From the sequence record NC_014792.1: 64,000 nucleotides of DNA; one strand, 5' to 3'. Positions 32,482 through 48,147 of the stretch are shown here, in pieces (the stretch's first letter is position 1; each line of letters begins with the position of its first letter). Under the pieces are notes generated by a model, which searched no databases, was not told where the DNA came from, and saw only the letters and a list, made by a program, of their open reading frames with translations. The position numbers and the translations under genes were made by a program. Source of the stretch: Escherichia phage vB_EcoM_VR7.

Positions 32482-32527
32482 TGTTGGTACAGGTCTATAA
32501 TATCATAACCTGTACCAAAGTAAACTG
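32482..32527 (-). promoter_or_regulatory. Early promoter embedded in a stem-loop (PeSL-like)
   Basis: Inverted repeat ttggtacaggt / acctgtaccaa around a TATAAT-like hexamer; GTTTAC on the minus strand. Confidence 0.5.
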
Positions 32528-32529
32528 TT

Positions 32530-32898
32530 TTATGCGACTTTAATCCAATTATCTAAATTTAATTCACCCTTAGCTTTCATTTTTTCAATCAGATTATCTG
32601 CAGTGGTGCGACCATTTTGATACCAGGTTACATCTTCAGAATAACCAGTTTCTTCATCTTCATAGGTCTTACAACGAATCTTACCAAGAATTAAAGTTTT
32701 CAGTTCGTAGGTATCACCAGTAAAAAAGTTTGTTACCATAATTTTCCAGGAGAAGTCATCAGAAGGACCTTCTGGAGTCATGCAAGAAACGAATTCAAAT
32801 TGTTCTTTATACAAGTGCCATTGCATTTCTTTAGTTTCAATGGCTTTGTAACCGTCGTGGTCTTTACCTTTGATGTATGAGTTAAGATTGATTTTCAT
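32530..32898 (-). CDS. Hypothetical protein (122 aa)
   Basis: GGAG SD; early promoter (GTTTAC, 18 nt, CATAAT) upstream; 5' leader nearly identical to that of 32093..32458. Confidence 0.45.
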   Translation of the reverse strand: MKINLNSYIKGKDHDGYKAIETKEMQWHLYKEQFEFVSCMTPEGPSDDFSWKIMVTNFFTGDTYELKTLILGKIRCKTYEDEETGYSEDVTWYQNGRTTADNLIEKMKAKGELNLDNWIKVA

Positions 32899-39696: not shown

Positions 39697-39761
39697 AATA
39701 GTTTCCTCAAATATTTTATAATCCGTAGGAGCATTATACTCTGCTCCCAAGAGTTTGTAAA

Positions 39762-44101: not shown

Positions 44102-46357
44102 TCAAAGTTTACAAGCGGAGCAGTCTTCTGCTTTAGGAGCTTCGATTTCGTAATCGTCTGTTCCGGAACCGTCTCTAGTGTTATGATAATAAAGGTTTTT
44201 TCCACCAAAATACCAGAAGTACATCAAGTCGTCAAGCATAACTGACATCGGAACTTTTCCTTTCGGAAAAATCTGTGGGTCATAGTATGTGTTTGCTGAA
44301 GCTGATTGACATACCCATTTCAACATAATAGCTACCATCGTAAGATAAGGTTTATTACCTTTCTTAGCTAGCACCCATGCATAATCGTACAATCCTTTAT
44401 TGTGCTCAATATTGGGCACGACTTGATTAAAGGAACCCTCTTTTGACTCTTTAATAGAGACTGGTCCACGCGGAGGTTCGATACCGTTTGTACTGTTAGA
44501 AACTTGGGAAGATGACTCACAAGGCATAAGTGCTGATAATGTGCTATTACGGATGCCATATGCAACCAGGTCTTCCCGCAACTGCGCCCAGTCACAAACG
44601 TAGTTTGGAGCTGCGATTTGGTCAATCTTTTTATTGTACCAGTCGATAGGTAATTCGCCTCGAGCCCAACGAGTGTCTGAATAATATTCGCAAGGTCCTT
44701 TTTCTTTGGCGAGCTTGATTGATGCTCGGATAAGGCCATATTGTAATCTCTCAAATAATTCATGGGTTAAATCGTTTGCATCAGCGTAAGAAGCGAAATT
44801 GCTTGCCAGCCATGCAGCATAGTTAGTAACCCCAACACCCAGGTTACGGCGTTTTTTGGCTTTCAGAGCTTCTTTAACCGGATAACCTTGGTAGTCCAAC
44901 AGGTTATCAAGAGCACGAACTTGAACTTCAGCCAGCTCGTTAATCTTGTCTTGGTCCTGCCAGTCAAAACTATCCAGAACAAATGCAGACAATGTGCACA
45001 ATCCGATTTCAGCGTCTTCACTGTTTACATCAGTAGTCGGGATTGCAATTTCACAACATAAATTCGATTGACGAATCGGAGCCTTATCGCGGATGAACGG
45101 AGTATAGTCATTCACATTATCAACGAACTGCGGATAAACTCGGGCAGTGCCGGAACGTTCGGTCATGAATAATTCGAACAGGTCTTTTGCTTTGATGCGC
45201 TTCTTACGAACTGTCGGGTCTTTTTCCAAGGCTTCGTATAACTCACGGAATTTATCCGGGTTATCAAAATATGAATAATACAATTCACCACCGGCTTCGT
45301 GTGGACTAAACAGAGTGATGTAATCATTCTTAGCCAGTCGTTCCATCATCAGGTTATTCAACTGAACACCATAGTCCATATGTCTGATGCGGTTTTCTTC
45401 AACGCCCTTGTTGTTCTTCAGAACGAGTAAATTTTCAACTTCCAAATGCCATAAAGGATAATAAGCAGTAGCAGCGCCGCCACGGATTCCACCTTGTGAA
45501 CAGGATTTAACAGCCGTTTGGAAATGTTTCCAGAACGGAATAACACCAGTATGCTTGACTTCACCCATACCGATTTTCGAACCTTCAGCACGAATCATGC
45601 CAACGTTGATACCGATACCCGCCCGCTTACTGATATATTCGATGATTGAATTGGCGGTCTTATTGATTGACTTCAGGGAGTCAGCAGCTTCGATAACCAC
45701 ACAGGAACTGAACTGCCGGGTAGGTGTTCTGGCGCCCGCCATGATAGGTGTGGGCAACGAAACCTGTCTTGTGGATACTGCATCATAAAAACGGCAAACG
45801 TGCTTCAGACGGTCCGTTGGTTCATCCTGGTGCAGTGCCATGCCGATAGCCATGATAGCGAATTGCGGAGTCTCGTAGATTTTACCGGTGGTTTTATCTT
45901 TAACCAGGTATTTCTCTTTCAACTGCATCGCGCCTGCATAAGTCAGGTCAAAATCACGTTCGTGTTTGATACGAGATTCCAGATAAGTAATCTCTTCGGC
46001 GGAGTAGCTTGACAACAGTTCCGGGTCATATTTGCCTTCATTGACACAATAAGAAATCTGGTCAATAAAAGAACGTGGCTCGAACTGACCATAGACATCT
46101 TTACGCAGAGCAAACATCGTAGCTTTGGCCGCAACATATTGGTAATCTGGTTCTTCAACCGAGATAAGTCCAGCAGACACTTTGATGATAACCGTCTGAA
46201 TATCGCGAGTAGTCATACCATCGCGCAGATGTGGTTTGATTGTTTCGTATAATTCATACGGGTCGATATTAGTTCCTTCACATGACCAGGAAAGAACTTT
46301 AATAATTTTCTGGCCATCAAAATCTTGAGATACGCCACTACTTTTTTGTACTTGCAT
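44102..46357 (-). CDS. nrdA: Ribonucleotide reductase large subunit
   Basis: 751 aa; conserved RNR catalytic motifs (e.g. NLCCEI); position as T4 nrdA. Confidence 0.95.
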   Translation of the reverse strand: MQVQKSSGVSQDFDGQKIIKVLSWSCEGTNIDPYELYETIKPHLRDGMTTRDIQTVIIKVSAGLISVEEPDYQYVAAKATMFALRKDVYGQFEPRSFIDQISYCVNEGKYDPELLSSYSAEEITYLESRIKHERDFDLTYAGAMQLKEKYLVKDKTTGKIYETPQFAIMAIGMALHQDEPTDRLKHVCRFYDAVSTRQVSLPTPIMAGARTPTRQFSSCVVIEAADSLKSINKTANSIIEYISKRAGIGINVGMIRAEGSKIGMGEVKHTGVIPFWKHFQTAVKSCSQGGIRGGAATAYYPLWHLEVENLLVLKNNKGVEENRIRHMDYGVQLNNLMMERLAKNDYITLFSPHEAGGELYYSYFDNPDKFRELYEALEKDPTVRKKRIKAKDLFELFMTERSGTARVYPQFVDNVNDYTPFIRDKAPIRQSNLCCEIAIPTTDVNSEDAEIGLCTLSAFVLDSFDWQDQDKINELAEVQVRALDNLLDYQGYPVKEALKAKKRRNLGVGVTNYAAWLASNFASYADANDLTHELFERLQYGLIRASIKLAKEKGPCEYYSDTRWARGELPIDWYNKKIDQIAAPNYVCDWAQLREDLVAYGIRNSTLSALMPCESSSQVSNSTNGIEPPRGPVSIKESKEGSFNQVVPNIEHNKGLYDYAWVLAKKGNKPYLTMVAIMLKWVCQSASANTYYDPQIFPKGKVPMSVMLDDLMYFWYFGGKNLYYHNTRDGSGTDDYEIEAPKAEDCSACKL

Positions 46358-46377
46358 GTTTTCCTCTGTTATAAAAT

Positions 46378-46430
46378 GGGGTCATGCTTATACTAACACA
46401 TGACCCCTGGAGCGGAATCGTATTTATAGA
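46378..46430 (-). promoter_or_regulatory. 9-bp stem hairpin plus a late-promoter-like TATAAATA between td and nrdA
   Basis: ggggtcatg-cttatactaaca-catgacccc; minus-strand TATAAATA at ~46421-46428. Confidence 0.4.
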
Positions 46431-46488
46431 AGGAAGTTAAGTCCGACCATTACGACCAAAAATAAAATGCCAGCAATTTGAATTTTCA

Positions 46489-48147
<1,659 letters not shown>

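Follow-up and report, generated by a model that had tools for sequence, protein, structure and literature searches.

A candidate promoter/stem-loop cassette upstream of nrdA in Gaprivervirus and Dhakavirus coliphages

The 71 nt that precede nrdA in this phage can be read as a single composite promoter/stem-loop cassette of the PeSL type, in its middle-promoter variant PmSL, and on the sequence evidence we hold this reading with somewhat more belief than doubt. The hairpin likely brackets a MotA-type middle promoter of the form GCTCCA-12 nt-TGtTAGTAT, the extended −10 of which lies in the loop. This MotA-box/extended −10 promoter was absent from a preliminary description of the region and is better supported than the late-promoter reading advanced there.

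Results

The window, by which we mean the whole 64,000-nt stretch that was analyzed, comes from a VR25-like Gaprivervirus, a relative of T4, and shares 99.4% identity with Escherichia phage vB_EcoM_VR25 (Tevenvirinae), in which td and nrdA are annotated. Every gene of the region is carried on the minus strand, in the order frd, td, nrdA. The thymidylate synthase gene td (46489..47349, 286 aa) and the gene for the large subunit of class Ia ribonucleotide reductase, nrdA (44102..46357, 751 aa), were both identified from the ORF list, the VR25 annotation, and PHROG searches (PHROG 160, E = 1e-112, for td; E = 0 for nrdA). The td frame is uninterrupted from 46489 to 47349, and the phage thus has neither the group I intron of T4 td nor I-TevI. 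On the minus strand, the td-nrdA gap reads TAATG, a 21-codon ORF, TATAAATA, cgattcc, GCTCCA, GGGGTCATG, the loop TGt TAGTAT aag, CATGACCCC, ATTTTATAACA, the Shine-Dalgarno (SD) sequence GAGGAAAA, c, and the nrdA ATG, with SD and start codon spanning 46355..46366 and the ATG at 46357..46355.

The 21-codon ORF (46424..46489, minus) is unannotated in the window and absent from the VR25 and SP18 annotations. Its ATG overlaps the td stop codon and, judging from this TAATG overlap, its start is coupled to the td stop; its own stop codon TAA (46426..46424) lies inside TATAAATA and supplies three of the eight bases of that motif. The peptide is conserved in Gaprivervirus and Dhakavirus relatives, mostly by way of synonymous changes, and the window and VR20 versions differ by five synonymous and two conservative substitutions. 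A PHROG search with the 21-aa peptide gave no match; its hydrophobic sequence could possibly form a single membrane helix.

The preliminary description placed a hairpin with a 9-bp stem between td and nrdA, and a perfect 9-bp stem is present at 46378-46407. The 5′ arm GGGGTCATG (46399..46407, minus) fills the spacer between the Mot box and the −10, and the 3′ arm CATGACCCC (46378..46386, minus) is followed by ATTTTAT (46377..46371). The loop is 12 nt long in the window phage, and 11 nt separate the end of the hairpin from the nrdA SD. Folding of 101 nt as RNA gave −23.6 kcal/mol (z = −3.5), an energy that none of 200 shuffled sequences equalled, and the hairpin folded alone gave −16.7 kcal/mol. 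Perfect hairpins of at least 9 bp with loops of 3 to 16 nt number eight in the 64-kb window against 4.1 in simulated sequence, and those with at least five GC pairs number five against 0.9; a single such hairpin in 64 kb is therefore unremarkable alone, and the significance of this one is its intergenic position and its conservation. A covariance-model search of 46250-46600 against Rfam returned no match at E ≤ 10. The 78-nt element occurs at one place per genome record, without dispersed copies.

The promoter elements are arranged around and within this hairpin. A degenerate MotA box, GCTCCA, lies at 46408..46413 (minus), where alignments give GCTTCA, GCTTTA, or TGCTTAA in relatives, and the extended −10 TGtTAGTAT follows 12 nt away in the loop (46390..46398, minus), predicting a middle-mode start near 46383, inside the 3′ arm. 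MotA boxes, (a/t)(a/t)TGCTT(t/c)A, are centered near −30 and stand 12 ± 1 bp from a sigma70 −10 that carries TGn in about half of cases; middle promoters normally require an excellent −10 (TAtaaT), and single changes in the Mot box are tolerated in T4 (PMC2988021). The window Mot box (cGCTcCA) matches TGCTTYA at five of seven positions, and those of the SP18 type (cGCTTCA), UPEC07 (cGCTTTA), and Dhakavirus (TGCTTaA) each match at six. Likewise, the window −10, TAGTAT, agrees with TATAAT at four of six positions, against five for the TATTAT or TAGAAT of relatives and six for TATAAT, with TGn present in all. The spacing from Mot box to −10 is 12 nt in the window and in Dhakavirus and 11 nt in the SP18 and VR26 types, within the 12 ± 1 of T4. 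Relative to outgroups, the window lineage has three derived changes, GCTT to GCTC, one extra G, and TATTAT to TAGTAT; the extra G lengthens the hairpin stem, the three together lower the promoter match, and the middle promoter of the window phage looks weakened relative to those of its relatives.

The window phage clearly uses the Mot-type promoter class, as judged by motif counts. The pattern GCTTYA-N11-13-TANNNT occurs 14 times against 4.8 expected, with 13 occurrences on the early (minus) strand and one on the plus strand (2.5 expected per strand). A relaxed Mot pattern with TGn occurs six times on the minus strand, the nrdA site among them, and not at all on the plus strand, with 0.41 expected per strand. 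Another group of T4-like contigs, L033-L035 (about 74% NrdA identity), has GCTTAA-N12-TATAAT at the homologous place.

The most informative comparison came from surveying the sequences ahead of nrdA in IMG/VR and GenBank, where Dhakaviruses were represented by 51 records (JS98, JS10, VR5, IME341, QL01, and others). These phages share the 71-nt layout; their arms, AGGTTCTA/TAGAACCT where the window has GGGGTCATG/CATGACCCC, pair completely, and the order is CTATAAATA-TCAGTCCA-TGCTTAA-C-AGGTTCTA-loop TGtTATTATagatg or TGaTAGAATaatt(g/a)-TAGAACCT-AACATATT-GAGGAAATTATG. Pairs were tabulated by script in a hairpin-centered register because a plain MAFFT alignment, which aligns the −10 elements, sets the hairpins of the two genera one column out of register. 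In this comparison, which amounts to essentially one evolutionary event, four stem pairs are invariant, three are fully compensatory (G-C/T-A, A-T/T-A, and T-A/A-T), and three more have changed on both sides. Across eight haplotypes no stem pair is broken except the terminal pair in SP18-type sequences and TH54, and changes within a genus keep or improve pairing (U·G to C-G in P896, U·G to U-A in ESCO10/QL01, and, between the two loop alleles of Dhakavirus, TA exchanged for AT). Both of these loop alleles retain TGn and TAnnnT 12 nt from the Mot box, with TGaTAGAAT among the −10 elements found in relatives. In all, TGn plus TAnnnT (TAGTAT, TATTAT, or TAGAAT) is retained in four different loop sequences, 11 to 12 nt from GCTTnA. 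Since the arms differ yet still pair and the loop keeps its −10, stem structure and loop −10 are conserved independently. Moreover, the stem has been kept by compensatory change and not by repeat copying, which argues that the stem-loop has a function of its own; judged by this pattern of substitution, the hairpin is selected as a structure.

A canonical intrinsic terminator was considered and rejected. The stem is GC-rich, but the loop is 10 to 12 nt, the U-run (AUUUUAU) is short, and a consensus terminator scan did not call the nrdA-upstream hairpin. In Dhakavirus, the hairpin ends 8 nt 5′ of the SD and its tail, AACAUAUU, has no U-run; because of this tail and the long loop, canonical intrinsic termination is unlikely as the conserved function. 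Also rejected was an outer helix that would hide the nrdA SD by pairing UUCCUU or UUCCGCU with GAGGAA, as seen in short folds, since it is not conserved across four upstream contexts. In longer native sequence, the mean unpaired probability of the SD was 0.45 to 0.71 over five contexts.

Within Gaprivervirus, the exact element is carried by only about nine phages, whose alignment we compared together with neighboring sequences. VR25, CJ20, SP18, phage 212, and P896 have the window order of td, 21-codon ORF, and nrdA; in VR20, TH54, and TH57, nrdA.1 is inserted after the 21-codon ORF; and VR26, UPEC07, Yersinia phage P8, and PSD2001, a type common among Gapriviruses, have both nrdA.1 and nrdA.2. 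The hairpin is present with and without nrdA.1. In sequences of the SP18 type its loop contains TGtTATTAT at a spacing of 11 nt, and in those of the window type TGtTAGTAT at 12 nt. Common to all Gapriviruses is CGATTCC-GCT(T/C)(C/T)A, located 3′ of (C/T)ATAAATA. In the nrdA.2-bearing VR26, UPEC07, P8, and PSD2001, the homologous spot reads CGCTT(C/T)A-N11-TGaTATAAT, with no hairpin, followed by the nrdA.2 RBS. By its sequence, this promoter ahead of nrdA.2 is a textbook T4 middle promoter, and its presence in genomes without the hairpin indicates that the hairpin is unnecessary for promoter function.

Across Gapriviruses and Dhakaviruses, nrdA.1, nrdA.2, a 65-aa ORF, and the 21-codon ORF are each present or absent in the td-nrdA interval, the first three at the borders of the cassette. 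The interval is modular (L003 1712-2336; L004 1712-2614; L017 2212-3108), with junctions at start/stop overlaps, CTATGA versus CTATAA. A search of IMG/VR with a conserved 17-mer yielded VR20, VR25, and VR26 and, beyond these, just three chance hits in unrelated contexts, and one metagenome scan with an nrdA start pattern yielded one contig of the nrdA.2 type and no new hairpin variant.

The minus-strand late-promoter-like motif reported previously between td and nrdA was found as an exact copy of TATAAATA, the 8-bp TATA box that forms the T4 late-promoter core, at 46428..46421. In the direction of transcription it lies 5′ of the hairpin and is separated from it by 13 nt. T4-type late promoter boxes occupy −13 to −6, and although an AT-rich melting segment follows them, only the TATA box is required (PMC2988020); the predicted late start in the window is near 46415. 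The box lies at exactly −71 from the nrdA ATG in both Gaprivervirus and Dhakavirus and was found in 10 of 10 Dhakavirus sequences read, in both upstream contexts. The motif itself is fourfold enriched in the window (19 copies against 4.8 expected), with 17 of the 19 copies outside called ORFs and most of them 17 to 48 nt 5′ of a co-oriented start codon. The nrdA copy is intergenic and co-oriented with nrdA but, at 63 nt, is farther from its ATG than usual, and the segment after it, cgattccg, has an A+T content of only 3/8, which ties for the lowest among the 19 sites, most of the others having 6 to 7 of 8. At many TATAAATA sites (for example 4628, 7469, 15901, 37340, and 53671), (T)ATAT(C) occurs 3 to 4 nt later, as in TATAAATAaagTATATC, and may be a conserved initiation-region motif of the phage; the nrdA site lacks it.

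In Gapriviruses with nrdA.1, CATAAATA replaces TATAAATA, and its TAA is the nrdA.1 stop codon. In Gapriviruses without nrdA.1, TATAAATA arises because the last codon of the 21-codon ORF, CTA, abuts TAAATA, so that in Gaprivervirus a perfect late motif exists only at the deletion junction. Upstream of nrdA in distant T4-like contigs, TATAAATA occurs in L047 and AATAAATA in L036, L037, and L049.

The window contains one other clear promoter-in-hairpin, at 32484-32518 (minus), with a stem sequence unrelated to that of the nrdA hairpin. It is a perfect 11-bp hairpin (fold z = −4.3) with a 13-nt loop that holds the extended −10 TGaTATTAT, part of an early-type promoter GTTTAC-N17-TATTAT (GTTTAC at 32525..32520, TATTAT at 32502..32497, minus), and it is flanked by a stop codon (32532..32530) on one side and by the SD and ATG (32458) of the next gene on the other; by analogy, it looks like a classic PeSL. 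A third, weaker case is at 39700-39760 (minus), where an early-type GTTTAC-N18-TATAAT, with its −10 at 39738, lies inside a 6-bp inverted repeat, GGAGCA/TGCTCC.

Two structured sites on the plus strand involve copies of the late motif. At 349-373, a perfect 9-bp hairpin, TGCGCGTAT-gatataa-ATACGCGCA, has TATAAATA (360-367) spanning its loop and 3′ arm and lies directly 5′ of AAGGA and a possible GTG start at 386, resembling the T4 e/soc arrangement. At 1017-1065, the inverted repeats GTAGAACC...GGTTCTAC flank a copy of TATAAATA at 1037 and have an inner ATGC/GCAT pair; TAGAACC/GGTTCTA, a 7-mer of this site, is identical to the Dhakavirus nrdA hairpin arms, possibly by coincidence.

Discussion

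The arrangement upstream of nrdA belongs to a cassette type already known in T4-like phages, and the current picture of T4 gene regulation is not overturned by it. PeSLs (promoter-early stem-loops) were described in RB49/phi1 and extended to PST/T4 and nt-1/KVP40 as a succession of an upstream stop codon in an AT-rich stretch, a promoter, a stem-loop, an SD, and an ATG, with the stem-loop most often in the −35 to −10 spacer or overlapping the −10 box (PMC2839356, PMC4122927). They cluster at indels, and one stem-loop, when tested in a reporter, acted as a terminator (Arbiol et al. 2010, PMC2839356); the name PmSL was given to a variant that has a Mot box and a TATTAT −10 (Comeau et al. 2014, PMC4122927). 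The nrdA element resembles these in being an intergenic unit from stop codon to ATG, with a promoter and a stem-loop that overlaps the −10, and in sitting where ORFs have been gained or lost between close relatives. TATAAATA itself falls in the AT-rich, stop-codon-bearing 5′ part that is expected anyway of a PeSL-type cassette. The nrdA element differs in being single-copy rather than a member of a dispersed family of near-identical repeats, in lying between core nucleotide-metabolism genes whereas PeSLs lie in the hyperplastic ORFan region, and in adding a perfect late-promoter motif; in addition, the Dhakavirus version has no U-tract, and terminator activity is only putative. The cassette is described here for Gaprivervirus and Dhakavirus, genera outside those covered in PMC2839356 and PMC4122927.

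That nrdA should have a promoter of its own is not new, because T4 has a mapped middle promoter, PnrdA, with a start at T4 position 142726, 46 nt upstream of nrdA (Hinton 2010, PMC2988021, Table 1). Both promoters are of the MotA type, with TGn and a −10 directly before nrdA, and T4 GTCATGGTGATATAAT resembles window GTCATGTGTTAGTAT. In contrast to the window, the T4 promoter is embedded in the coding sequence of nrdA.1, a gene that overlaps the start of nrdA; the window −10 is the poorer of the two, and no bracketing hairpin or TATAAATA was noted in the T4 sequence there. A homologous element in T4 was rejected on the same ground, as nrdA.1 overlaps nrdA and leaves no intergenic gap. By analogy, the nrdA cassette is best filed as a PmSL-like promoter/stem-loop unit and a functional equivalent of the T4 PnrdA region, with a possible extra late promoter.

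According to the cassette model, transcripts reading through from the frd/td promoters, among which may be counted a sigma70-like site with TG in front of frd, would contain both arms, and the hairpin would fold. Once folded, it would attenuate transcription or protect the 3′ end of the upstream td message, and we infer that its role is such attenuation, or stabilization of the read-through RNA. RNA polymerase modified by MotA/AsiA would then initiate anew near 46383; with this start inside the 3′ arm, middle-mode nrdA mRNA would lack the hairpin, and its 26-nt leader would be free. Late firing from TATAAATA may also occur, and the hairpin would then occupy about +8 to +37 of the transcript.

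An alternative is that the inverted repeat acts as DNA, such that under negative supercoiling the non-template strand extrudes and offers sigma70 or MotA/AsiA polymerase a −10 (TGnTAnnnT) already melted in the loop. Phage N4, with its hairpin promoters, provides a loose analogue of such a structured-DNA promoter. If true, this would account for the fact that one middle-type and one early-type promoter of the window each place the −10 in the loop of a long perfect stem, and an RNA hairpin and a sense-strand DNA hairpin are not distinguishable from sequence; nevertheless, we consider this reading extremely unlikely.

The main question raised by the preliminary description is whether TATAAATA adds late transcription to nrdA, and here the outcome is mixed. 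We give a little less than an even chance to an active gp55-dependent late promoter that keeps nrdA transcribed late, with the hairpin as a 5′-proximal stabilizer, a reading that is compatible with the cassette model. The likeness to T4 late promoters is a perfect 8-bp TATA box, upstream of and co-oriented with the gene (Geiduschek and Kassavetis 2010, PMC2988020), which is sufficient in T4 (PMC2988020). The enrichment of the motif, nearly all copies of which precede genes, its intergenic position, its fixation at −71 in two genera, including all ten Dhakavirus sequences read, and the late-like motifs before nrdA in distant contigs (TATAAATA in L047; AATAAATA in L036, L037, and L049) all point the same way and make late transcription from this site plausible. 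What does not fit is that a stop codon accounts for three of the eight bases, that most Gapriviruses, those bearing nrdA.1, have CATAAATA instead, that the motif coincides with an ORF-deletion junction, and that the leader to the ATG is longer than usual (63 nt against 17 to 48). The case is further weakened by the GC-rich downstream flank, in which the segment expected to melt is 3/8 A+T. The companion suggestion, which gives the hairpin a part in RNA processing or stability, is less likely than not. As an exonuclease barrier at the 3′ end of td mRNA, or as a 5′ stabilizer of a processed nrdA mRNA, it would have no effect on transcription. Such a role fits the compensatory conservation of the stem in the absence of a conserved U-tract, the G·U pairs of the extended Dhakavirus stem, which make the structure specific to the sense strand, and the AU-rich single-stranded flanks, which suit RNase E. 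Against it, no cleavage motif or Rfam family match was found, the conserved promoter elements would be left unexplained, and sequence alone does not separate it from attenuation.

The hairpin might instead be a plain intrinsic terminator or attenuator that closes the frd-td unit, with the promoter-like sequences incidental. The GC-rich Gaprivervirus stem (−16.7 kcal/mol) followed by AUUUUAU would suit such a role, terminator-like hairpins precede nrdA in other T4-like phages (e.g., GGCAGCC-TTCG-GGCTGCC+ATTTT and AGGAGGC-GAAA-GCCTCCT+TTTTT), and efficient termination was seen in a reporter for one PeSL stem-loop (PMC2839356). We find it unlikely in view of the 10- to 12-nt loop, the Dhakavirus stem that was kept by compensatory change without a U-tract, and the negative scan; furthermore, four loop variants keep TGn and TAnnnT at Mot-box spacing, which a plain terminator loop would not need. 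That the palindrome and motifs have no function and are by-products of the recombination that removed nrdA.1 and nrdA.2 is a very unlikely explanation. The site is an indel hotspot, TATAAATA arises exactly at the nrdA.1 deletion junction in the window lineage, and chance alone would give about 0.9 GC-rich 9-bp hairpins per window; however, the architecture recurs in a second genus, where the stem differs in sequence and is fully complementary, substitutions within genera keep the pairing, and the hairpin is found with and without nrdA.1. There is likewise only a slim chance of translational occlusion of the T4 e/soc/49/I-TevI type, in which the nrdA RBS would be hidden in read-through RNA, leaving transcripts from the internal promoter as the only ones translated. 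As in those leaders, the middle-promoter start lies inside the structure, so that RNA started at an internal promoter is missing the 5′ arm and only read-through RNA can fold into the structure (PMC3014915), and some folds pair UUCC(G)CU or UUCCUU with the GAGGAA of the SD. Unlike those leaders, the window hairpin excludes the SD and AUG, and a late-type transcript would hold the whole hairpin. The SD stands outside the hairpin in both genera (by 11 nt in Gaprivervirus and 8 nt in Dhakavirus) and is about half unpaired in longer native sequence (probability 0.45 to 0.71), and the outer helix differs or is absent across the four upstream contexts.

The promoter/stem-loop cassette, if this reading is correct, extends the PeSL/PmSL idea to a position between core nucleotide-metabolism genes of T-even-like coliphages. 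It also provides a testable regulatory map of nrdA in two genera of therapeutic-type coliphages, in which read-through, middle, and possibly late transcripts would reach the gene with different 5′ leaders.
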